64,000 nucleotides of DNA from assembly GCA_043798915.1 (NCBI GenBank), contig JAZDOG010000068.1:498-64497 (forward strand). Reading direction: 5' to 3'. The notes under the pieces are model-generated. The model was not told where the DNA came from, ran no database searches, and saw only the letters and a program-made list of their open reading frames with translations. The position numbers were made by a program, and so were the translations under genes. This DNA comes from Pseudomonadota bacterium (GTDB lineage Bacteria > UBA10199 > 2-02-FULL-44-16 > JAAZCA01). Shown here in pieces: positions 3,989 to 37,004 of the stretch (position 1 is the stretch's first letter; the number at the start of each line of letters is the position of its first letter).

Positions 3989-5323
3989 ATGCCGGAATTC
4001 ACTCAAAAACGGGCATATATCCGCACCTTCGGGTGCCAGATGAACGAGCACGACTCCGTCCGGATTATGGGGATGCTCGAGTCGCTGGGCTATGTCTCGA
4101 GCGGCACCATCGATGATGCCGATCTCATCCTCTTCAACACCTGCACGATCCGCGAGAAGGCGCACCACAAGGCGATGAGCGAAATAGGGCGCGCGCGTCT
4201 CTTCAAGGAGCGGCGAGCTGGAACGCTCGTCGGCGTCTGCGGCTGCGTGGCGCAGGAAGAGCGCGAGGCGATCTTCGAGCGCTATCCCCATGTGGACATC
4301 CTTTTCGGCCCGGACCAGATCGCGCGCCTGCCTGAACTCATCGATGATGCCATGGGAAACAGCCGCGCCTCCGCCCTCGAACTCATCGACGATCCCTCGC
4401 AGTATCGGTTTTTGGGAAACGACGTTCGAGTTTCGAGTCCCGAGTCCCGAGTCTCGGCTTTCGTTTCCATAATGAAAGGCTGCAACTGCGCCTGCAGCTA
4501 TTGCATCGTGCCAAAGGTGCGCGGCCGAGAGGTCTGCCGTCCGGTCGGCGAAATCGTCGACGAGGTCCGGCGGCTCGCCGAGGCCGGGACGAAAGAAGTC
4601 ACGCTTCTCGGACAAAACGTGAACGCGTACCAGGGATCGGTCTCATTTTCCGGCCTCATTCGCCGGATCGCTGATGAAACCGATATCGGCCGCATCCGCT
4701 TCACTTCGCCTCACCCGCGCGATGCAGGAGATGATCTCGTCCGCGAGTATGCGGAGAACGAAAAGCTCATGCCGCACATCCATCTGCCGGTGCAGGCCGG
4801 CAGCAACGCGGTTCTTCGGAAGATGCGCCGGGGCTACACGCGCGAGCGCTATATCGAAATATGCGACGCGCTCCGCGGCGCCCGGCCAGGCATGTCGATC
4901 ACCACTGATATTATAGTCGGCTTCTGCGGCGAGAGCGTCGCGGATTTTGAGGAGACGCTCTCGCTCATGAGGAGGGTCGATTTCGATTCCGCCTTCGCGT
5001 TCAAGTATTCCCCTCGGCCGGGCACAGAGGCGGCCCTGAAATTCGAGGACGACGTGCCTCTCGAGGAGAAGAAAGAGCGCCTCGCGCGGCTGCTTTCGCT
5101 CCAGATTGAGACGTCGCGCCGCAAAAATCAGGCATTCGTGGGGATGGAAGGCGATGCCCTCGCGACCGGCTTCGATAGGATGAACCGCGGCCTCATCACG
5201 GCGAGGCTCCCCGACAACCGCATCGTACATTTCGCTGGCCATGCGGACTCAGTTGGTAATATACTGAAAGTCCGGGTGACCGGTGCGTTTGCAAACTCGC
5301 TTGCGGCGGAGGCAATTCAATGA
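3989..5323 (+). CDS. miaB: tRNA-i6A37 methylthiotransferase MiaB (radical SAM MTTase with TRAM domain).
   Basis: Motifs present are FGCQMNEHDS, the CxxxCxxC radical SAM motif (CNCACSYC) and a C-terminal TRAM domain. Confidence 0.85.
   Translation: MPEFTQKRAYIRTFGCQMNEHDSVRIMGMLESLGYVSSGTIDDADLILFNTCTIREKAHHKAMSEIGRARLFKERRAGTLVGVCGCVAQEEREAIFERYPHVDILFGPDQIARLPELIDDAMGNSRASALELIDDPSQYRFLGNDVRVSSPESRVSAFVSIMKGCNCACSYCIVPKVRGREVCRPVGEIVDEVRRLAEAGTKEVTLLGQNVNAYQGSVSFSGLIRRIADETDIGRIRFTSPHPRDAGDDLVREYAENEKLMPHIHLPVQAGSNAVLRKMRRGYTRERYIEICDALRGARPGMSITTDIIVGFCGESVADFEETLSLMRRVDFDSAFAFKYSPRPGTEAALKFEDDVPLEEKKERLARLLSLQIETSRRKNQAFVGMEGDALATGFDRMNRGLITARLPDNRIVHFAGHADSVGNILKVRVTGAFANSLAAEAIQ
4416..4468. 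repeat. Hairpin-forming micro-repeat inside miaB. Four tandem heptamers YYCGAGT (4425-4452) are flanked by an inverted GGAAACG/CGTTTCC pair.
   Basis: Read directly: ggaaacgacg ttcgagt ttcgagt cccgagt cccgagt ctcgg ctttcgtttcc. The frame is maintained and it encodes ...NDVRVSSPESRVSAF. Confidence 0.5.
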
Positions 5324-5854: not shown

Positions 5855-6361
5855 ATGATATCCGCAATCAAAGGCAAATCACCCAACATAGATCCAAGCG
5901 CCTTTGTGGCCGGCAATGCCACGGTGCTTGGGGATGTCAGGATCGGAGCGGGCGCTGGGATATGGTTCGGGGCCGTCATCCGCGGCGATTCGAACTCGAT
6001 ATGCGTAGGTTCCAGGACAAATGTGCAGGATCTCTGCGTCCTCCACGTGGACGAGTTGAATCCGCTCAGGATAGGCGACGACGTCACGATAGGGCACCGC
6101 GCCATTCTTCACGGCTGCAGCGTTGGCGACAGGGTGCTCATCGGCATGGGCGCGATCATCATGAACGGTGCCACCATAGGTGACGACTCCATTGTCGGCG
6201 CGGGCGCGCTCGTCACCGAGGGCACAAAAGTTCTGCCGCGCTCACTCCTTATCGGCGTCCCGGCGAAGGTGAAGAGGGAGCTCTCGGATGGCGAGATCGC
6301 CGGCATCCTGCAGGCCGCAAAGCATTATGTGCAGAACGCGGCAGTATATAAGAAGTCTTAA
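5855..6361 (+). CDS. Gamma-class carbonic anhydrase family protein (left-handed beta-helix hexapeptide repeat).
   Basis: Hexapeptide repeats and VLHVDE...IGDDVTIGHRAILHGCSVGDRVLIGMGAI are typical of YrdA/PaaY gamma-CA-like proteins. Confidence 0.8.
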   Translation: MISAIKGKSPNIDPSAFVAGNATVLGDVRIGAGAGIWFGAVIRGDSNSICVGSRTNVQDLCVLHVDELNPLRIGDDVTIGHRAILHGCSVGDRVLIGMGAIIMNGATIGDDSIVGAGALVTEGTKVLPRSLLIGVPAKVKRELSDGEIAGILQAAKHYVQNAAVYKKS

Positions 6362-6362
6362 A

Positions 6363-6453
6363 CTCCCCTCCTTTGTAAGGAGGGGGTGGGGGAGGTAGAT
6401 CGTGGTCTATGCTTGATCTACCCTCCCTATCCCTCCCTTACAAAGGGAGGGGG
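6363..6453. repeat. Palindromic repeat element, copy A (intergenic, just upstream of tilS).
   Basis: Read directly: ctcccctcctttgtaaggagggggtgggggaggtagatc-gtggtctatgctt-gatctaccctccctatccctcccttacaaagggaggggg. Two terminal hairpins flank a central palindrome. Confidence 0.8.
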
Positions 6454-6464
6454 TTTGAAAAATC

Positions 6465-7463
6465 ATGCTGTTTCCCAAGTTCAAAAAATTCATGGCGGAT
6501 AACGACCTCATTCGAGAGGGCGATGGCGTCATCGTCGCGGTCTCCGGCGGCATCGACTCTATGGTCCTCCTCGATCTCTTCTGCCGTGTCGCGGGGCCGA
6601 TGAAGCTCTCCCTCAGGGCGGCGCATGTGAACCACATGCTCCGCGACAGGGCATCAGGCGAGGACGAGGCGCTGGTGCGCAAATTCTGCGGCAAGATGGG
6701 CATCCCCTGCGAAGTCCAGAGGCGCAGGCCTCCGGCAGGCAAAAACCTCCAGGATGCGGCCAGGAGAATTCGGTACGATTTTTTTAAAAGCAGCGCAGAA
6801 AAGGGGAGGGCGTTCTCGATAGCCACCGCCCATCATATGGACGATCAGGCGGAGACGATCCTCCTGCACCTGATTCGCGGCGCGGGGCTCGCAGGTCTCG
6901 CCGGCATGAGGCCGAAGGCGCGCATTGGAGCGCTGAAACTGGTGCGACCGCTCCTCTTTGCATCGAGGGCTGAGATCGAGCAATACGCGAAACAGAGACA
7001 CATCGAATACAACGACGATGCCACGAATGCGACAGTGAAATATGCCCGAAATTCGGTGCGCCATCGCCTGATCCCGCTCCTAAAGGAATTCAATCCGCGA
7101 ATAGTCGAAAACATCGCGGCGATAGGCGACAGGGCGGACGCCGACGAAAAGGCCCTGCGGCTGTTTGCTGAGGAATCGCTCGATCAGGCGCTGACCAGAA
7201 ACAGCCGCGATGAGATATGGCTCTCCCGCCAGGCCTGGCTGCCGCTGCCCCAGGCGGTCAGAGGCCGCATGCTTCGCGCCGCCTTCGAGCGCGCGAGCGG
7301 AAGCGCCAAGGATTTGAATGCCGACCAGCTGTTGCGGATGGATTCGATAGCGGCAGGGCCTCGGCCCTCGGGGTCGTATCGCCTCCCCGCGCCCTGGAAA
7401 TTTCATCGCGATGGCGACCTGATCGGAATCACCCGCAGCGCAAAAAAGTGTGACAGAAAGTGA
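6465..7463 (+). CDS. tilS: tRNA(Ile)-lysidine synthetase TilS.
   Basis: The N-terminal PP-loop SGGIDS (VAVSGGIDSMVLLDLF) is present. The 332-aa length fits a short TilS form. Confidence 0.75.
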   Translation: MLFPKFKKFMADNDLIREGDGVIVAVSGGIDSMVLLDLFCRVAGPMKLSLRAAHVNHMLRDRASGEDEALVRKFCGKMGIPCEVQRRRPPAGKNLQDAARRIRYDFFKSSAEKGRAFSIATAHHMDDQAETILLHLIRGAGLAGLAGMRPKARIGALKLVRPLLFASRAEIEQYAKQRHIEYNDDATNATVKYARNSVRHRLIPLLKEFNPRIVENIAAIGDRADADEKALRLFAEESLDQALTRNSRDEIWLSRQAWLPLPQAVRGRMLRAAFERASGSAKDLNADQLLRMDSIAAGPRPSGSYRLPAPWKFHRDGDLIGITRSAKKCDRK

Positions 7464-7889: not shown

Positions 7890-8012
7890 CTGAATCCCCC
7901 TAACCCGACGCGGGCAGGCTTGTCAATCGCGTTCTCGGAAACGGCCAGGTGAGTTCTAGACCGGTCGACGCCTCATCACCGCCCTCTTGATGTTTATCGC
8001 CGATCTCTGCTC

Positions 8013-8584: not shown

Positions 8585-8842
8585 TTTCCCTCTCCCCTCG
8601 TGCCTGCCCGCCGACGGTTCAGTGGCGGGGGAGAGGGTCAGGGTGAGGGGGAAGATCGCACGGATTCCAATATCCCCCTCCCTCCGACTCCCTCCCACAA
8701 GGAGGGTGTTTCCGAAGTGTCATTCCCGCATGATGTAAGCGGGAATCCCCATCAGAAGTTCATGGGGTTCCCGATTTAAGCACTCGGGAATGACAAAATA
8801 GAGGCCTACTGTTACTTCGGAAACACCCTCGCAAGGGGAGGG
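8585..8842. repeat. Composite or degenerate repeat complex related to the palindromic element family.
   Basis: Segment 8585-8687 has cctctcccctcg...cgggggagagggtcagggtgagggggaagatc, which resembles copy B. Segment 8690-8842 has the shape ccctcccacaaggaggg-[internal inverted repeat]-ccctcgcaaggggaggg. The internal inverted repeat reads gtgtttccgaagtgtcattcccg ... cgggaatgaca..acttcggaaacac. Confidence 0.6.
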
Positions 8843-8960
8843 AGAATTTCTAAAGGCACCATACTGAAATAGTTGCGAACCTAAAGTGCTATAAAGGGGT
8901 TGCTTAACCCTGTTTTCTCCGCTATTTTCCCCCGACTCGATAATTTCAAGGAGCCTTCAC

Positions 8961-14890: not shown

Positions 14891-15261
14891 TCATTGGAAT
14901 TGGCGTAGATCTCGTGGATGTGAAGAGGTTCGAGACCATAATCTTTCGCTGGCAGCACAGGTTCTTGAAGCGCGTATTCACCGATACGGAGATACGCTAC
15001 TGCAACACGAAGAAACACCCGGCGCAGCGCTTCGCCACGAGGTTTGCCGCCAAGGAGGCGTTCATCAAGGCGCTCGTCCCCAGGGAGCAGGAGGGGGTGC
15101 GCTATTCCGACATCGAGATCGGCGAGCGCGATCAGAGGCCCGTCATCAACCTCTCGGGCAAAATCGATGAGCTGGCCAGGAAACAAAAGATAAAGCACAT
15201 CCATCTCATGCTCTCGCATGATGGAGACTATGGAATAGCGAACGTTGTGCTCGAGGGTTAA
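14887..15261 (+). CDS. acpS: Holo-ACP synthase.
   Basis: Sequence shows MIIGIGVDLVDVKRFE. The 124-aa gene overlaps the pdxJ stop. Confidence 0.85.
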   Translation: MIIGIGVDLVDVKRFETIIFRWQHRFLKRVFTDTEIRYCNTKKHPAQRFATRFAAKEAFIKALVPREQEGVRYSDIEIGERDQRPVINLSGKIDELARKQKIKHIHLMLSHDGDYGIANVVLEG

Positions 15262-15283
15262 AACCTATCCAGCCAGATTTAAT

Positions 15284-16834
15284 ATGAAACTTGTGACTTC
15301 AAAACAAATGCGCGGGCTCGATCGCGCCGCCATTGAAAAGCATGGGATCGCCTCGCTCGATCTCATGGAGCGCGCGGGCCGGGGCGTGGCGAAAGCTGTA
15401 GCCAGCCTCACGCCGCCGGAGAAAGGGACGGTCGCTATCATCGCCGGCCGCGGCAACAACGGCGGCGACGGGCTCGTTGCAGCGCGACATCTGATCTCGA
15501 TGGGATACGAAGTCGCCGTTTGGCTTCTGGCGGGGCCCTCCGACCTCTCGCCGGACGCCCGCGCGAACTGGGAGTTGCTCGCCCCGCTCACGACGCATCT
15601 GTTCACAATCGCGGATATCGCCGAATTCAATTCCAGATTGCCCCTCATCGAGCGATCGTGCCTGATCGTCGATGCGATCCTCGGCACCGGTCTCGACCGC
15701 GACGTCGCAGGGCTTCCTGCGGCCGCTATCGCAGCGATCAACGCCGCCGGCATTCCGGTCGTGTCGGTCGATATTCCGTCCGGGCTTTCGGCGGATACCG
15801 GAAAACCGCTTGGCGCCGCAGTCCGCGCCGCTGCGACGGTGACCTTCGGCCTGCCGAAGATGGGCCTTGTGGTCGGCGATGGGCCTGTTTTTTCGGGCTC
15901 AATCAAAGTCGTGGATATCGGGATACCGGGTGAGGAGACTGATCGCGTCGAATCTCTGATCGAGCTGATCGAGCCTTCGATGTTCGCGTCCCATTTCGGA
16001 AAGCGCGATCCCTCCGCGCACAAGGGGGCGTTCGGACACGTCGTGGTCTACTCAGGATCGCTGGGGCATCTTGGCGCGGGATATCTCGGGTGCCTGGCGG
16101 CGCTGCGCGCTGGATGCGGGCTCGTCACGTATTGCCTGCCGGAGAAGGCGTTCGTCCGGTTCGATGCGCGCTATCCGGAGGTTATGTGCGATCCGATTGC
16201 GGATGATGCCTCGGCGCATTTTCACCCCAAGGGTCTCGATGCCGCGCTTCGCGTTGCCGATGGAAAGTCGGTTGCGGCGATCGGCCCGGCGATCGGCACA
16301 GAAAAGTCGACGCGCGAATTTGTGAATTCATTCATCGGCAGGATTAAAATTCCGCTCGTCATAGATGCGGATGGACTCAACGTGCTCGATCTCTCTTCCC
16401 TCAGGGGACGCCGCGCGGCCACGATCCTCACCCCGCACCCCGGCGAGATGGGGAGGCTGTCAAAGGCCGCAACTGAGGATGTTCAGGCCGACAGAGTGGG
16501 GCACGCCACCCGTTTCGCAAAGGAACACGGCGTGACGCTCGTCCTCAAGGGGCGCGGGACTGTCGTCGCGAGCCCCGACGGGAGCGCCGCAATAAATCAT
16601 ACGGGCAATGCCGGGATGGCGACGGCTGGGATGGGGGACGCCCTCACTGGCATCGTTGCATCGTTTATCGCGCAGGGGATGGATGTGAAGACGGCCTGTG
16701 TCGCCGCCGTCTACATCCACGGCCTGGCCGGCGACATGGCCGCCGCCGAACACGGCGAGCGCGCGCTGATCACCTCGGATGTGATAGGCAAGCTGGGAAA
16801 GGCGATGAAAAAGATTTCCCCCTCCCCTTTGTAA
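15284..16834 (+). CDS. nnr: Bifunctional NAD(P)H-hydrate repair enzyme Nnr (YjeF_N epimerase plus C-terminal dehydratase).
   Basis: Present are the N-domain IAGRGNNGGDG and the C-domain carbohydrate-kinase fold. The last 6 codons and the TAA stop are supplied by repeat copy B. Confidence 0.85.
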   Translation: MKLVTSKQMRGLDRAAIEKHGIASLDLMERAGRGVAKAVASLTPPEKGTVAIIAGRGNNGGDGLVAARHLISMGYEVAVWLLAGPSDLSPDARANWELLAPLTTHLFTIADIAEFNSRLPLIERSCLIVDAILGTGLDRDVAGLPAAAIAAINAAGIPVVSVDIPSGLSADTGKPLGAAVRAAATVTFGLPKMGLVVGDGPVFSGSIKVVDIGIPGEETDRVESLIELIEPSMFASHFGKRDPSAHKGAFGHVVVYSGSLGHLGAGYLGCLAALRAGCGLVTYCLPEKAFVRFDARYPEVMCDPIADDASAHFHPKGLDAALRVADGKSVAAIGPAIGTEKSTREFVNSFIGRIKIPLVIDADGLNVLDLSSLRGRRAATILTPHPGEMGRLSKAATEDVQADRVGHATRFAKEHGVTLVLKGRGTVVASPDGSAAINHTGNAGMATAGMGDALTGIVASFIAQGMDVKTACVAAVYIHGLAGDMAAAEHGERALITSDVIGKLGKAMKKISPSPL

Positions 16835-16910
16835 GGGGAGGGTCAGGGTGGGGTAGATAGCTGATTCAGTGCTGATCTACCTCCCCCAGCCCCTCCTTAC
16901 AAAGGAGGGG
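16817..16910. repeat. Palindromic repeat element, copy B. It overlaps the 3' end of nnr and the RBS/start region of tsaE.
   Basis: Read directly: cccctcccctttgtaaggggagggtcagggtggggtagatagctgattcagtgctgatctacctcccccagcccctccttacaaaggaggggag. Confidence 0.8.
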
Positions 16911-16933
16911 AGTTGTGCAATCATCGATATAAC

Positions 16934-17364: not shown

Positions 17365-18771
17365 ATGGCATATGACCTCGCAATCATCGGCGCAGGGCCA
17401 GGAGGCTACGTCGCAGCCATAAGGGCGGCGCAGCTCGGCAAAAAAGTTGCGCTCATCGAGCGCGACCGCGTGGGCGGCGTCTGCTTGAATCGCGGCTGCA
17501 TACCGACGAAGGCGATGATTTCCTCTGCGCATGCGCTGCACGCCGTCAGGTCGGCCGCGGATTTTGGAATCGATCTGCCGGCGGGTGAAGCGACGGTCGA
17601 TATGGCGAAGATCGCCGCCCGCCGCGACAGGATAGTCGCGCAGTTGAGAGGCGGTGTAGCGGCGCTCCTCAAGGGAAACGGGGTCGAGCTGATTTCCGGC
17701 ACGGCCTCTTTCGTTTCAAAAGGAATCCTCGATGTGAATGGAAATGAAATCGAGGCCGGCAAAATACTCATCGCCACCGGTTCCTCTTGGATGGAACTTC
17801 CCGACCTCAAGATCGACGGCCGCCGCATAGTCACGACCGACGAGGCGCTTGGCTGGACGAGCGTTCCGCCGCGCCTCCTGATCGTAGGCGGCGGTGTCAT
17901 CGGATGTGAATTCGCGTGCATGATGCAGACCTTCGGTTCGAAGGTGACGATCGTCGAGGCGACCCCGTCGATCCTCCCGTTCGTTGAGAAGGCGATCTCG
18001 CGCCTGCTCGACCGCTCGATGAAGGGGCGAGGAATCGAGATCCTCACATCCACGATGGTCAAAGGCGCGGTGGTCCAGGGCAACGAAGTGAAGATTTCTC
18101 TCTCCTCCGGTGAAGAGAGGCTGGCGGATTGCGTGCTCGTCGGGGTCGGCAGAAGGCCCTTCACGGAGGGCTTGGAGTTAGAACGCGCGGGGGTCCTGCT
18201 CACGGAGCGCGGATTCATAAAGGTCGATGAAAATTTCCAGACGAGCGCCGAAGGGGTGTTTGCAATCGGCGACGTGATAGGGGCTCCGATGCTCGCGCAC
18301 GCCGCGAGCGCTGAAGGCATTGCTGCGGTGGAAAGGATGTTTTCGGGACTCGGTACTCGGGACTCGGTACTCGGATACAATCCTTTGTACTGTCCATCGC
18401 CAATATTCACCATGCCCGAAATTGCCTGTGTCGGGCAAACGTCGGAGGGACTGGAACAGAAGGGCATCAAATTCAAGACGGGCAGGTTCGCATATGCGGC
18501 AAACGGCAAGGCCCTCTGCGACGGCGACACGGAGGGGCAGGCCATAGTCCATTCAGATGCAGATGGAAAAATACTCGGCGTTCATGTAACAGGTCACGAT
18601 GCGACGCTCCTCATGGCGGAGGCCGTCCTTGCGATGAGAAAAGGCCTCGCCGCAAAGGATTTCGCCTCGTCGATCCACTCGCATCCGACGCTCTCGGAGG
18701 TTGTCGCGGAGGCAGCGGAGGATGTGGATGGCAGGGCGATACACAAGGCGCCGGCGCGCAGAAAGGAATAG
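17365..18771 (+). CDS. lpdA: Dihydrolipoyl dehydrogenase.
   Basis: Sequence shows [17 protein letters not shown] and the redox disulfide [13 protein letters not shown]. Length is 468 aa. Confidence 0.9.
18345..18375. repeat. Tandem heptamer micro-repeat (ACTCGGN x4, the reverse complement of the miaB CCGAGT repeat) in frame inside lpdA.
   Basis: Read directly: gggactcggtactc gggactcggtactc gg. It encodes an extra [10 protein letters not shown]-like segment relative to typical LpdA. Confidence 0.5.
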
Positions 18772-28597: not shown

Positions 28598-29539
28598 GTG
28601 AACGGACGATCGACAGATAGCTCCAGGAGGAGGCTTCCTGAATGGCTCAAGAAACGGGCTGTTCCGGGTGAAGCTATCCACGCGATCAAGCGCGGCCTGC
28701 GCGACAGTGCGCTCCACACCGTCTGCGAAGAGGCCCGCTGTCCCAACCTCGGCGAATGTTTCTCACGCGGCACCGCGACGATGATGATCATGGGCGATAC
28801 CTGCACTCGCCGCTGCGGCTTCTGTGCGGTGAAGGGCGGCGTTCCTGGGCCGCTCGATGCCGGAGAGCCCTCGCGCGTGGCCCTGCAGGTCAAGGTGATG
28901 AAACTCAAGCATGCCGTGGTAACCTCCGTCACGCGCGACGACCTCCCGGATGGCGGCGGCGCGCATTTTGCGCAGACGATAGCCGAGATAAGAAGGCTCT
29001 GCCCCGAAATCACGATCGAGGTCCTGACGCCCGACTTCTGCGGCAGCGAAGAGGCGATAGGGACGGTCTGCAGCGCAGCTCCGGATATATTCAACCACAA
29101 CATCGAGACGGTCGAGCGGCTGACGCCCGTCGTGCGCGATCGCAGGGCAAGTTATCGACGGTCGCTTGATGTATTGAGGATAGCAGCCAAAACCCTCCCC
29201 TTTGTAAGGGGAGGGAAGGGTGGGGTAGATCATGATCTACCTCCCCTAACCCCTCCTTACAAAGGAGGGGGACTAATCAAGTCAGGGCTGATGGTGGGCC
29301 TGGGCGAGACCTGCAATGAAGTGGCCGGCGCCCTCCTGGACCTCAAAGAAGCGGGCTGCGACATCGTGACGATCGGCCAATACCTGCGCCCATCGAAGGA
29401 TGCGCTGCCGGTGGTCAGCTATGTTGAACCTTCGACCTTCGAAAAGTATAGAGAAAATGCTTTAAATATCGGATTTAAGACTGTGTTTTCAGGCCCTTTT
29501 ATTCGTAGTTCATATCTGGCCGATAAGGCGCTACTTTAA
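28598..29539 (+). CDS. lipA: Lipoyl synthase.
   Basis: Sequence shows LHTVCEEARCPNLGEC, then CTRRCGFCAV (radical SAM), then ...SGLMVGLGET. It carries a 27-codon in-frame insertion from repeat copy C. GTG start. Confidence 0.9.
   Translation: MNGRSTDSSRRRLPEWLKKRAVPGEAIHAIKRGLRDSALHTVCEEARCPNLGECFSRGTATMMIMGDTCTRRCGFCAVKGGVPGPLDAGEPSRVALQVKVMKLKHAVVTSVTRDDLPDGGGAHFAQTIAEIRRLCPEITIEVLTPDFCGSEEAIGTVCSAAPDIFNHNIETVERLTPVVRDRRASYRRSLDVLRIAAKTLPFVRGGKGGVDHDLPPLTPPYKGGGLIKSGLMVGLGETCNEVAGALLDLKEAGCDIVTIGQYLRPSKDALPVVSYVEPSTFEKYRENALNIGFKTVFSGPFIRSSYLADKALL
29193..29271. repeat. Palindromic repeat element, copy C, inserted in frame inside lipA.
   Basis: Read directly: ccctcccctttgtaaggggagggaagggtggggtagatcatgatctacctcccctaacccctccttacaaaggaggggg. 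It is translated as TLPFVRGGKGGVDHDLPPLTPPYKGGG. Confidence 0.85.
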
Positions 29540-33843: not shown

Positions 33844-36342
33844 ATGCCTGAACGACACTACAACCCTGCCGAAATCGAATCCAAGTGGCAGAAGCACTGG
33901 GAGAAGAAGGGGCTCTTCAAGGTGAAGGAGGTCCCAGGGCAGAAGAAGTATTACCTCCTCGAGATGCTCCCGTACCCCTCCGGGCGGCTTCACATGGGGC
34001 ACGTGCGCAACTACACGATAGGCGACGTCGCGACGCGCTGCCGCATGATGCAGGGCTTCAAGGTGCTGCACCCAATGGGCTGGGATGCCTTCGGCATGCC
34101 CGCCGAGAACGCCGCGATCAAGGAGGGCGTCCACCCCGCCAAGTGGACGAAGTCGAACATCGATTACATGCGCGGGCAGTTCAAGCGCCTCGGATGCTCC
34201 TATGACTGGGAGCGCGAATTCGCCACGTGCGACCCCGATTACTACCGATGGGACCAGCTGATATTCGTGCGGATGTTCGAGAAGGGATGGGCCTACAAGA
34301 AGAGCTCCCAGATCAACTGGTGCCCGACATGCCAGACGGTGCTGGCCAACGAGCAGGCCGAGGGAGGCGTCTGCTGGCGCTGCGACTCGGGGGTGGTGGG
34401 CAAACCGATGTCGCAATGGTTCTTCAGGATCACCGATTACGCCGAGGAGCTCCTCCGCGACATCGACGAAAAGCTCACGGGCTGGCCGGAGCGCGTCCGC
34501 ATCATGCAGCGCGAGTGGATCGGAAAGAGCGTGGGCGCCTTGATCAGATTTCCCCTCCTTTGTAAGGAGGGGAAAGGGGAGGTAGACCATGATCTACCCC
34601 ACCCTAACCCTCCCCTTACAAAGGGGAGGGAATTTATCGAGGTCTTCACGACGCGCCCGGACACGATCTTCGGCGTCACCTTCATGAGCATCGCGTGCGA
34701 GCACCCGCTCGTTAAGGAATTCGTGAAAGGGACCGGCCAGGAGAGGGCGGTCGCGGCGTTTGCCGAGAAGAGCTCCCACATCGACCACGAGGCCAGGCTC
34801 GCAAACACATATGAGAAGGACGGCGTCTTCACCGGCGCATATTGCATAAACCCGATGACGGGCGCGCGCGTGCCGATCTACGCCGCCAACTTCGTCCTCA
34901 TGGACTACGGCACGGGTGCTGTGATGGCGGTGCCGGCGCACGACCAGCGCGATTTTGAATTCGCGAAAAAATACAAGCTCCCTGTCAAGGTCGTGATCCA
35001 GCCGGAAGGGGAGAAGCTCGATGCAAGAGCGATGGCTGAAGCCTGGGAGGGACCGGGGACGCTCGTCGATTCGGGCGAGTTCACCGGAATGAACAGCGAG
35101 GCCGCGATCCGCGCCATCTCGGAGCACTTTGCGAAGAAAAAGATCGGCGGGCCGGCGGTCACGTATCGTCTGAAGGACTGGTGCATCTCGCGTCAGCGCT
35201 ACTGGGGCGCACCCATCCCCATCATCTATTGCGACTCATGCGGGACAGTGCCTGTCCCGGATAAGGACCTGCCCGTTGTCCTTCCTCATGACGTGGAGTT
35301 CACCGGCGAGGGCGGCTCGCCGATAGCCAAACTCGAGTCATTCGTGGACACCAAATGCCCCAGGTGCAAGGGAAAGGCGCGGCGCGAGACCGACACGATG
35401 GACACGTTCGTCGAGTCGTCGTGGTACATGCTGCGCTATGCATGCCCCAAATACGACAAGGGGCCTGTCGATCCGAAGATGATCGAGTACTGGCTTCCGG
35501 TCGATCAGTACATCGGCGGGATCGAACATGCCGTCGGGCATCTCATCTACTGCCGCTATTTCACCAAGGTGATGCGCGACTTGGGGATGCTCAAGCTCGA
35601 CGAGCCGGTGAAGAACCTGATGACGCAGGGGATGGTCTACAAGGACGGCGCCAAGATGAGCAAGTCGAAGGGGAACGTCGTCGACCCTGACGACATGATC
35701 GCCAAGTTCGGCGCCGACACCGTGAGGCTCTTTTCGCTCTTCGCCGCGCCGCCTGAGAAAGACCTCGAGTGGAGCGAGCGAGGGGTGGAAGGGGCGCACC
35801 GCTTCCTCATCCGCGTATGGCGCATCGTCTCGGCGTGGAAAGAGGGAGGAGGCGGAAAGGGTGCAAAGGCGACAGAAGATATCGGGCAGTGGCGAAACCG
35901 CACGATCCAGCGCGTCACCGAGGATGTAGACCGTTACCATTTCAACACCGCGATCGCTGCGGTGATGGAGTACGTCAACTTCCTCTACGGCCTCAAGGTG
36001 CAGGATATCCCTGCGGAGGCGATCGAGACGCTCATACTCCTCGTCTCCCCGTTTGCGCCGCACGCGGCGGAGGAACTCTGGGAGCTCTTGGGGCATTCGA
36101 AGTCGACCCTCCACGAGCCGTGGCCGGCGTTCGATCCTGCGAAGGCGCAGGGCTACACGGTGACCTACATCGTGCAGGTTGGCGGCAAGATGCGAGACAA
36201 GCTCGATCTCCCCATCGATATGCCCGAGGAGGACGTGAAGGCCGCGGCCCTAGCCTCGGCGAAAGTTGCTGCGCATCTCGAAGGCAAGGCGCCCCAAAAG
36301 GTGATCTTCGTCCCGAAGAGGCTCGTGAATATTGTGGTGTGA
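33844..36342 (+). CDS. leuS: Leucyl-tRNA synthetase.
   Basis: Present are [12 protein letters not shown] (start of the CP1 editing domain) and KMSKS. It carries a ~27-codon in-frame insertion from repeat copy D just before VFTTRPDT. Confidence 0.95.
34551..34629. repeat. Palindromic repeat element, copy D, inserted in frame inside leuS.
   Basis: Read directly: cccctcctttgtaaggaggggaaaggggaggtagaccatgatctaccccaccctaaccctccccttacaaaggggaggg. It is translated as [26 protein letters not shown]. Confidence 0.85.
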
Positions 36343-36417: not shown

Positions 36418-36627
36418 ATGACATACGGTCGCGTTTCACCGAAATATCAGATCGTCATCCCGAAAGAAGTGCGCAAGGTCGTGGACATAAAGCCTGGCCA
36501 GAGGCTCATGATCTACGCCAAGGACAATGTCATCTATCTCATCCCGGAAGTGGGTGTCTCCCAGCTGAGAGGCATCTGCAAGGGAGTGAAGACTTCTGGC
36601 GTCCGTGAAAGGGAAGACAGAATATGA
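36418..36627 (+). CDS. vapB: AbrB/SpoVT-type antitoxin (VapB-like).
   Basis: Sequence shows VSPKYQIVIPKEVRKVVDIKPGQRLMIY, a swapped-hairpin AbrB fold. It overlaps the downstream PIN gene by 4 nt. Confidence 0.8.
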   Translation: MTYGRVSPKYQIVIPKEVRKVVDIKPGQRLMIYAKDNVIYLIPEVGVSQLRGICKGVKTSGVREREDRI

Positions 36628-37004
36628 AGCTTCTCATCGATTCCTCGGCCTGGCTTGAATATCTCTCTGATAGTCCAAAGGCAAAAGGGTTGGAAAGATA
36701 CTTCAAGCCTCCGCACAAGGTCGTGCTTCCTTCTATCGTCGCATACGAGGTCTACAAGAGAATCAAGGCGGAAAGAGGGGAACGTTCGGCGGTCATTGTC
36801 CTTGCCCAGATGGAGAGGATTTCAACATCCCTGCTCTCAATCGACCAAGGGCTTGCCGTGAAGGCAGCCGATGTGAGCATTGAACATAAGCTCCCGATGG
36901 CCGACGCCTTCATTTATGCAACGGCGTTATCCACCGGTTCGACCGTCCTCACTTTAGATGCCCATTTTAAGGGTCTTAAACAGGTACAGTTCATAGCAAG
37001 TTGA
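36624..37004 (+). CDS. vapC: PIN-domain toxin VapC.
   Basis: Sequence shows MKLLIDSSAWLEYL, with acidic residues ...YEVY...DAFIYATA...LTLDAHF, typical of PIN. Confidence 0.85.
   Translation: MKLLIDSSAWLEYLSDSPKAKGLERYFKPPHKVVLPSIVAYEVYKRIKAERGERSAVIVLAQMERISTSLLSIDQGLAVKAADVSIEHKLPMADAFIYATALSTGSTVLTLDAHFKGLKQVQFIAS

Follow-up and report, generated by a model that had tools for sequence, protein, structure and literature searches.

How does an essential, highly conserved translation enzyme come to carry a palindromic DNA repeat as part of its own polypeptide, and how did the repeat reach that site? The question is raised by 64,000 nucleotides of contig JAZDOG010000068.1 (positions 498 to 64,497 of the forward strand; assembly GCA_043798915.1, Pseudomonadota bacterium), a stretch referred to here as the window, in which the leucyl-tRNA synthetase (LeuRS) gene leuS contains one copy, copy D, of a short palindromic repeat. 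With a probability of about 0.8, copy D is a short, non-autonomous repeat of the type of the transposable elements of the miniature inverted-repeat class (MITEs) or the REPINs, lying in frame in leuS and giving the enzyme a tolerated surface loop. In-frame palindromic insertion is already known; the unexpected part is the same repeat at the same codon in three separate lineages.

An in-frame repeat in the editing domain of LeuRS

The host gene specifies what appears in every other respect to be a normal synthetase. HMGH, TTRPDT and KMSKS motifs stand at residues 50-53, 269-274 and 605-609, and the protein is 100% identical to the LeuRS held by NCBI for this metagenome-assembled genome (MAG; protein P0001), which is annotated with PF00133, PF13603 and PF08264 from Pfam. 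Similarity to solved LeuRS structures (7NUA, 1H3N) reaches E = 1e-251. An AlphaFold2 model built on 54 homologues (mean predicted local distance difference test score, pLDDT, of 87) has the LeuRS of Neisseria gonorrhoeae, Thermus thermophilus and Escherichia coli as its top Foldseek matches and, outside the insert, superposes on LeuRS structures with template modelling (TM) scores of 0.8-0.88 (Foldseek), as expected of a normal LeuRS. Motifs, full-length similarity and fold thus identify a bacterial LeuRS of class Ia with a CP1 editing domain. The gene and the parts of the repeat within it are as follows.

33844-36342, forward strand: leuS, leucyl-tRNA synthetase, 832 aa, with intact HMGH, KMSKS and TTRPDT motifs
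34552-34630, forward strand: copy D, a 79-nt triple-hairpin palindromic repeat in frame in leuS, oriented from end a to end b
34552-34572, forward strand: terminal hairpin a, CCCCTCCTT-TGT-AAGGAGGGG, seen in RNA and DNA folds
34576-34603, forward strand: central imperfect stem, GGGGAGGTAGA-CCATGA-TCTACCCCACC, seen in the RNA fold
34608-34630, forward strand: terminal hairpin b, CCCTCCCCTT-ACA-AAGGGGAGGG, seen in RNA and DNA folds

Copy D reads CCCCTCCTTTGTAAGGAGGGG AAA GGGGAGGTAGA CCATGA TCTACCCCACC CTAA CCCTCCCCTTACAAAGGGGAGGG and encodes LeuRS residues 237-262 (26 residues), after which the protein continues with EFIE and VFTTRPDT. A preliminary description of this DNA had reported an in-frame, lineage-specific insert just upstream of TTRPDT, and such an insert is present; the coordinates given there, 34551-34629, picked out the right element, the position of which is corrected here to 34552-34630. 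Of the two arms of hairpin a, one is a Shine-Dalgarno sequence and the other looks like the 16S anti-Shine-Dalgarno sequence. Because the A.C and G.A mismatches of the central stem are conserved, the halves of the element are unlike each other. The RNA form of copy D has a folding energy of -52.2 kcal/mol (z = -5.4) and the DNA form a z-score of -5.8, and no shuffled sequence folded as well. The 25-nt centre has one further match with at most three mismatches, at 29222-29246 on the minus strand, where none is expected (100 shuffles). An intein or intron, considered without a dedicated test, fits poorly with 78 nt that hold neither splicing motifs nor a nuclease.

Aligned to T. thermophilus LeuRS, which has no such insert in the printed alignment, the additional residues replace the turn E237-G238-K239 of the hairpin AEILFPV / EVRIPVF and stand 8-10 residues ahead of T247, T248, R249, D251 and T252 (all 1H3N numbering). 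This alignment places them at the tip of the first beta-hairpin, in the N-terminal part of the CP1 editing domain and outside the linker or hinge strands. The hinge between catalytic core and CP1 domain to which the insert had been assigned is therefore replaced by the turn E237-K239 inside the editing domain, and the accompanying suggestion of altered editing-domain dynamics is neither supported nor excluded. In the AlphaFold2 model, residues 242-260 have pLDDT values below 50 and are flanked by confident strands (228-239 and 264-269), suggesting that the Pro/Gly/Lys-rich loop of 26 residues is probably disordered. Loop length varies naturally at this point (T. thermophilus 237-239), N. gonorrhoeae LeuRS and dozens of LeuRS from MAGs having other, longer inserts there; unlike those, the extra residues of the window protein can be traced to a genomic repeat whose palindromic DNA is intact. 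Exposed to solvent and variable in length by nature, the loop would allow an essential enzyme to tolerate the insert, and the insert is most likely a tolerated, translated and disordered loop.

The repeat family in the window and across genomes

A repeat search recovered four full copies in the window, copy D and the following three.

6365-6453, forward strand: copy A, in the same orientation as D, intergenic and with a longer centre, between the stop of open reading frame (ORF) 5855-6361 and the tilS start at 6465
16820-16910, reverse strand: copy B, inverted relative to D, overlapping the 3' end of ORF 15245-16834 and adjoining a tsaE-like start at 16913
29193-29271, reverse strand: copy C, inverted relative to D, in frame in lipA (28598-29539, forward strand), encoding LPFVRGGKGGVDHDLPPLTPPYKGGG

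That the lipA and leuS inserts belong to one repeat, as had been proposed, is borne out by copies C and D being 84% complementary over 74 nt (inverted repeat pair I1); in LipA the copy supplies 26 aa where the Mycobacterium tuberculosis protein has 2. The two peptides had been called near-identical, but only 12 of their 26 residues match, all of them around the palindromic centre G.VDHDLP. Copies C and D are inverted while lipA and leuS both lie on the forward strand, and therefore opposite strands of the element are read. The shared internal frame that had been claimed exists only at the perfectly palindromic centre, and the terminal hairpins are read differently, as CK/LTK in D and VR/YK in C. 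Short copies have one open frame per strand, D using that of one strand and C that of the other.

Copies A and B lie close to gene ends. Copy A begins 4 nt past a TAA stop, and its GGGAGGGGG arm ends approximately 9-11 nt ahead of the tilS ATG; the last codons and the stop of ORF 15245-16834 come from copy B, the AAGGAGGGG arm of which adjoins the tsaE-like start. To judge from their sequence, the hairpin arms of both copies, as Shine-Dalgarno and anti-Shine-Dalgarno look-alikes, could supply or mask ribosome-binding sites. The proposal that solo halves act as cassettes of a hairpin with a Shine-Dalgarno sequence was rejected, an ORF start lying at the right distance in 4/61 cases as against 10% at random positions. 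Repeats of other kinds also occur in the window. A composite palindrome of another family at 8688-8844 has outer arms at 8688-8718 and 8814-8844 and inner arms at 8718-8749 and 8764-8795 (pairs I17 and I23), and runs of a CGAGTCC-like heptamer at 4427-4456 and 18344-18373 are mutually inverted (pair I16).

Beyond the window, more than 115 stretches from GTDB species representatives contain the exact 21-nt hairpin a among the matches listed; the hosts are mostly Nitrospirales, the others being Deltaproteobacteria-labelled genomes, Bdellovibrio, Elusimicrobia, Parcubacteria and unclassified MAGs, and in most cases GGGGAGGTAGA follows the hairpin. Polarity is constant in every complete copy examined, with hairpin a and GGGGAGGTAGA at the left and TCTACCCC(A/T)CC and hairpin b at the right, and 37 of 42 complete copies measure 69-197 nt, with both ends conserved and the centre variable. 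The repeat has two different hairpin-bearing ends around a short variable centre. In most copies a T or TT stands directly 5' of CCCCTCC and the 3' flank is A/T-rich; across 13 aligned copies the only regularity is a T before and an A/T-rich base after the element, which extend the palindrome. A spacer TA(A/G) ahead of hairpin b was considered as specific to the leuS copies and dropped, being present in the unrelated copies L048 and L019.

In several other long ORFs, too, the hairpin or the full element lies in frame, as in one of 1247 aa in an Elusimicrobia MAG. A phmmer search with the insert peptide against 1.84 billion representatives gave five short proteins (E 3e-5 to 5e-4), which are probably ORFs called on intergenic copies. 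No Rfam family matched at gathering thresholds anywhere in the window, and a literature search found no published description of the repeat family. In Acidobacteriota loci (L030, L087, L051 and others) the 21-nt hairpin mostly appears with a T-run at gene ends and without the rest of the element, and there looks like a terminator; it also occurs in frame, as SPPYKGGVAAASADGVVL, in a purH-like and an acyl-CoA-synthetase-like ORF.

Among the closest known systems are the Rickettsia palindromic elements (RPE), in-frame palindromic repeats within genes (Ogata et al., 2000, as summarised in PMC10969869). These too are short, scattered palindromes, many of them in frame in unrelated housekeeping genes and translated as an extra peptide at positions compatible with the fold, and the leuS and lipA copies, with their predicted disordered surface loop, share this property. 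The likeness is one of description. The host here is an environmental MAG lineage labelled 'Pseudomonadota/Deltaproteobacteria', and not Rickettsia, and the family is also found in Nitrospirales and other phyla; the element is a triple hairpin of approximately 79 nt with two different ends, as against approximately 100-150 nt; and RPE sites are vertically inherited, whereas here the same site is filled in non-sister lineages. Dimers of GTAG/CGTC repetitive extragenic palindromic sequences (REPs) within genes encode 20-30 aa, their hosts including IleRS and GlyRS-beta, and recB of two Xanthomonas species is reported to hold REPs at nearly the same place (Di Nocera et al., 2013, PMC3733652). The defining mark of GTAG-REPs is a GTAG tetranucleotide placed immediately at the 5' end of a stem-loop that measures 20-40 nt (PMC3733652). 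In the present family GTAG occurs within GGGGAG-GTAG-A, approximately 10 nt 3' of each terminal hairpin, after a spacer and in the central stem, and is not a 5' tag adjoining the stem; nor was any association with a REP-associated tyrosine transposase (RAYT) found, and the family spans phyla, whereas GTAG-REPs are species-specific.

REPINs mobilised by RAYT lie almost wholly outside genes, are inherited vertically and are linked to a RAYT present in single copy (Bertels and Rainey, 2011, PMC3116915). The present family resembles them in having two inverted hairpin-bearing halves, which form a larger hairpin around a centre of 6-70 nt, in being non-autonomous, and in a copy number that local density suggests to be tens to hundreds per genome. 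It departs from them in that the halves consistently differ (one has hairpin a and GGGGAGG, the other hairpin b and GGGTGGGG), copies lie in ORFs and a search for a linked RAYT gave no hit in the window. Lineage-specific vertical inheritance does not describe it either, given near-identical ends in Nitrospirales, Elusimicrobia, Parcubacteria, Bdellovibrio, Deltaproteobacteria and unclassified MAGs, and sister lineages that differ in presence of the element. MITEs of the DDE type have terminal inverted repeats and lengths of 50-500 nt, as does this element, but also a target-site duplication, which it lacks. The repeat is best filed among the palindromic repeats translated inside genes, a kind already known.

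Filled and empty leuS alleles

The comparison set comprised the best 120 LeuRS matches, 117 of which lack the insert. The nearest orthologues (72-77% identity, 807-818 aa) read IDF-xI(D/E)Gxx(E)K-IRIF at the site, and because these nearest relatives keep a conserved 8-residue loop the insertion is derived and not ancestral. Within this set a homologous insert occurs, besides the window protein, only in P0007 (828 aa) and P0017 (854 aa), the DNA of which (L001 and L003, respectively) carries the same element at the same leuS codon and in the same orientation. The extra residues are thus not a clade-wide feature devoid of a palindromic signature, the outcome against which the preliminary description had guarded: the nearest relatives lack them and the filled relatives keep the palindromic DNA. 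A metagenome scan for the right-hand junction returned the P0007 and P0017 lineages and no others. In a codon alignment the element of the window is 95.8% identical to that of L001 and 91% identical to that of L003, while leuS outside the element is 64-71% identical among the three and third codon positions, at 37-50%, are saturated. The insertion is young or sequence-constrained relative to leuS divergence.

The three filled alleles do not group together. In LeuRS trees each pairs with an insert-free protein (P0001 with P0002, P0007 with P0018, P0017 with P0032), and monophyly of the three was recovered in 0/60 bootstraps. Neighbouring genes agree with the LeuRS tree: HolA of the window is 62% identical to that of L004 as against 51-53% to that of L001, L001 matches L123 at 79% as against 68% for L122, and L122 matches L124 at 74%, while the N-terminus of MurJ is 93% identical between L122 and L124 as against 85% between L122 and L001. 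Both halves of leuS give the same picture, and a recombination breakpoint uniting L001 and L003 as sisters in the 5' half was unsupported. DNA of the sisters shows an empty leuS site, and no element modules were found within 18-22 kb in the three empty sister loci, whereas the filled loci hold 2-4 element copies; a filled leuS and a genome colonised by the repeat family therefore go together. Since each of the three filled lineages has an empty sister, the filled state arose or arrived at least three times.

Comparison of filled with empty sites indicates replacement, not duplication. All three filled alleles have lost the ancestral 8-residue loop, and they share flank changes from I-D-F to I-(R/K)-F and from K-I-R-I-F to (F/Y)-I-E-(V/I)-F. 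A more distant clade of LeuRS (P0044-P0069) natively has flanks of this form, I[KR]F..[FY]IEVF; within it, P0050 carries at the same codon a decayed solo hairpin belonging to the repeat family, and in P0062 the same loop holds a hairpin repeat of a different kind. LeuRS with other long inserts at the loop (P0065, P0071, P0075, P0045) keep IDF..IRIF, and therefore a long loop alone does not force the flank switch. The one unusual feature of the locus is this recurrent filling of a single codon in non-sister lineages with identical flank changes.

Several further observations concern these loci. The leuS copy of the P0017 lineage (L003 1403-1520, also L122) has an additional 30-nt palindrome, CCGCCTACGCCAAGGCTACGGCGGGCAGG, nested in its right hairpin b, in frame and adding PAYAKATAGR. 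Both other filled lineages have a second copy just upstream of the leuS start codon (L001 9962-10000; L003 603-680), that of L001 being a truncated half with its GGAGG 9 nt ahead of the leuS ATG; the window has no copy there. Four palindromic inserts, all in frame and drawn from two other repeat families, lie in the leuS gene of P0062 (L126 125-2677): three are CCCCCCTTTGAAAAAGGGGGG..GGGGGGGATTTATA copies (L126 829-865, in the same loop, 1228-1264 and 2309-2345) and the fourth is a GTAG-tagged REP dimer with 55-nt arms (L126 2063-2176); a Y1_Tnp gene starts at 8010 on the L126 contig. Downstream of leuS the window differs from relatives L001, L004, L123 and L124, in which holA follows directly, in having an ORF of 126 aa resembling a PIN domain at 36624-37004 between leuS and holA, which looks like an inserted toxin-antitoxin-type gene.

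Routes to the filled site and their meaning

Copy D may have persisted because its short form has one open frame per strand, because its length is a multiple of three and because the loop that received it is exposed to solvent and of naturally varying length. On three or more occasions the filled allele would have originated at, or spread to, this one codon in genomes carrying the repeat family, and there are two candidate routes: site-preferring insertion, or transfer of an approximately 100-nt patch of leuS comprising the element and a few flanking codons. Simple transposition fails to explain the leuS site, because the loop is lost and the flank changes are identical. The anatomy of the repeat, its in-frame position, its absence from relatives, its return at one codon and its nucleotide conservation are observed directly, whereas we infer the neutrality of the insert and the way in which it was acquired.

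Transfer of a short allele patch, for which our confidence is tentative, would have brought in a foreign leuS segment of approximately 100-110 nt (the element with some 2-5 codons on each side) by crossovers between conserved blocks, WIGKS upstream and FTTRPDT downstream, making the conserved gene a landing pad for the repeat. It accommodates a junction codon and an orientation that are identical in three lineages, each with an empty sister, together with the joint absence of the 8-residue loop and the same changes of D to R/K, K to F/Y and R to E; the resulting flanks match the native state of the P0044-P0069 clade, where P0050 and P0062 have repeats at the site, and, since LeuRS with other long inserts keep IDF..IRIF, the identical flank changes are not forced by a long loop and so favour such a transfer. 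It is burdened by the fact that similarity among filled alleles is not raised beyond approximately 5 codons on each side, which would require crossovers within approximately 10-20 nt in DNA only 70-80% identical, and by the failure to find a donor allele with a full element in a native IEVF-type context, the junction scan having given only the two known lineages. The presence of other repeat copies in filled genomes and their absence from the empty sisters is also expected from transposition within the genome, and the centres of the leuS copies resemble those of other copies in their own genome (the central loop is missing from both full copies of L001, and copies C and D of the window share CATGATC). 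These same points speak for site-preferring transposition, a possible but doubtful alternative, in which the element inserted independently in each colonised genome beside a short motif rich in T, which in leuS would be the F codon of I-D-F (GATTT), after which selection removed the old loop and re-optimised the cross-strand pair D..R to R/K..E. The T or TT and the A/T-rich flank of most copies fit this account, as do the tracking of family colonisation by the leuS insertion, the genome-specific centres of the leuS copies and the recurrence of another site, just upstream of the leuS start in L001 and L003. It demands three parallel deletions of 7-8 codons and three parallel substitutions, though, when LeuRS with other long inserts lack these changes, and neither a target-site duplication nor a clear target motif is definable. 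Movement of the filled leuS allele either by short-patch recombination at WIGKS and FTTRPDT or by strongly site-specific integration is a speculative possibility that likens the repeat to inteins and homing introns, which occupy conserved sites of conserved genes; it would explain the identical junction, the identical flank substitutions and the 91-96% identity over a saturated background.

Three other explanations carry less weight. Selection for a function of the insert, whether as an RNA or DNA structure pausing ribosomes at the boundary of catalytic core and CP1, as a site for a host factor or as a peptide modulating the editing domain, could be read from the 91-96% element identity between lineages with saturated synonymous sites, the very stable predicted structure (-52 kcal/mol), the position at the start of the editing domain and the Shine-Dalgarno and anti-Shine-Dalgarno look-alikes in the hairpin arms. 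The sequence is equally conserved in intergenic copies and unrelated phyla, however, and this conservation therefore belongs to the family and not to leuS; the closest relatives do without the insert, the peptide is predicted to be disordered, P0050 retains only a decayed solo hairpin, and neither an intrinsic terminator nor a promoter signal was found when sought at the leuS insert, so that such a function is unlikely. An ancestral insertion lost from most relatives would account for the same junction in three lineages, but insert-free orthologues in both clades and beyond share the loop xI(D/E)Gxx(E)K with IDF..IRIF, which deletion of a palindrome would not recreate, and at nucleotide level the element is far better conserved than the saturated synonymous sites, making this account highly improbable. 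An error of assembly or binning has also to be considered, since assemblers can be misled by repeats and the source of the window is a MAG; the ORF is intact, the length of the insert is a multiple of three, and the same filled architecture is present in six independent contigs from NCBI, ENA and JGI assemblies, so that an assembly artefact is effectively ruled out and this is the least probable account of all.

A number of points weigh against the reading of copy D as a tolerated MITE- or REPIN-type insertion. No consistent direct repeat flanks the 13 aligned copies as a target-site duplication would. No end pair encloses a transposase-sized segment, as an autonomous parent element should, in 119 repeat-bearing loci, in which the five larger end spacings (442-28,265 nt) represent separate copies joined or are unexamined. 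A tblastn search with the Y1_Tnp protein from L126 gave no hit in the window and one in the 119 loci (L054, 4 kb from the element). The leuS site is not a clean insertion, the 8-residue loop being missing and three flanking residues being changed identically in the three filled lineages. The LeuRS trees were built by neighbour-joining only, with the insert columns left out, and it is the intact ORF with its conserved motifs that suggests copy D is transcribed and translated with leuS. Finally, the very high conservation of the element across phyla could reflect a selected function and not selfish spread.

The leuS copy indicates that a selfish palindrome can be taken up as additional protein sequence even by a translation enzyme that is essential and highly conserved, and it widens the reach of the RPE phenomenon to environmental bacteria that live freely and to a family of repeats shared across phyla. 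Repeats of this kind inflate and distort protein alignments, create spurious 'hypothetical' peptides and may pass for lineage-specific domains. Whether such elements have target specificity or spread between genomes by hitch-hiking on conserved genes becomes a tractable question at this locus, where one codon is filled repeatedly in non-sister lineages.

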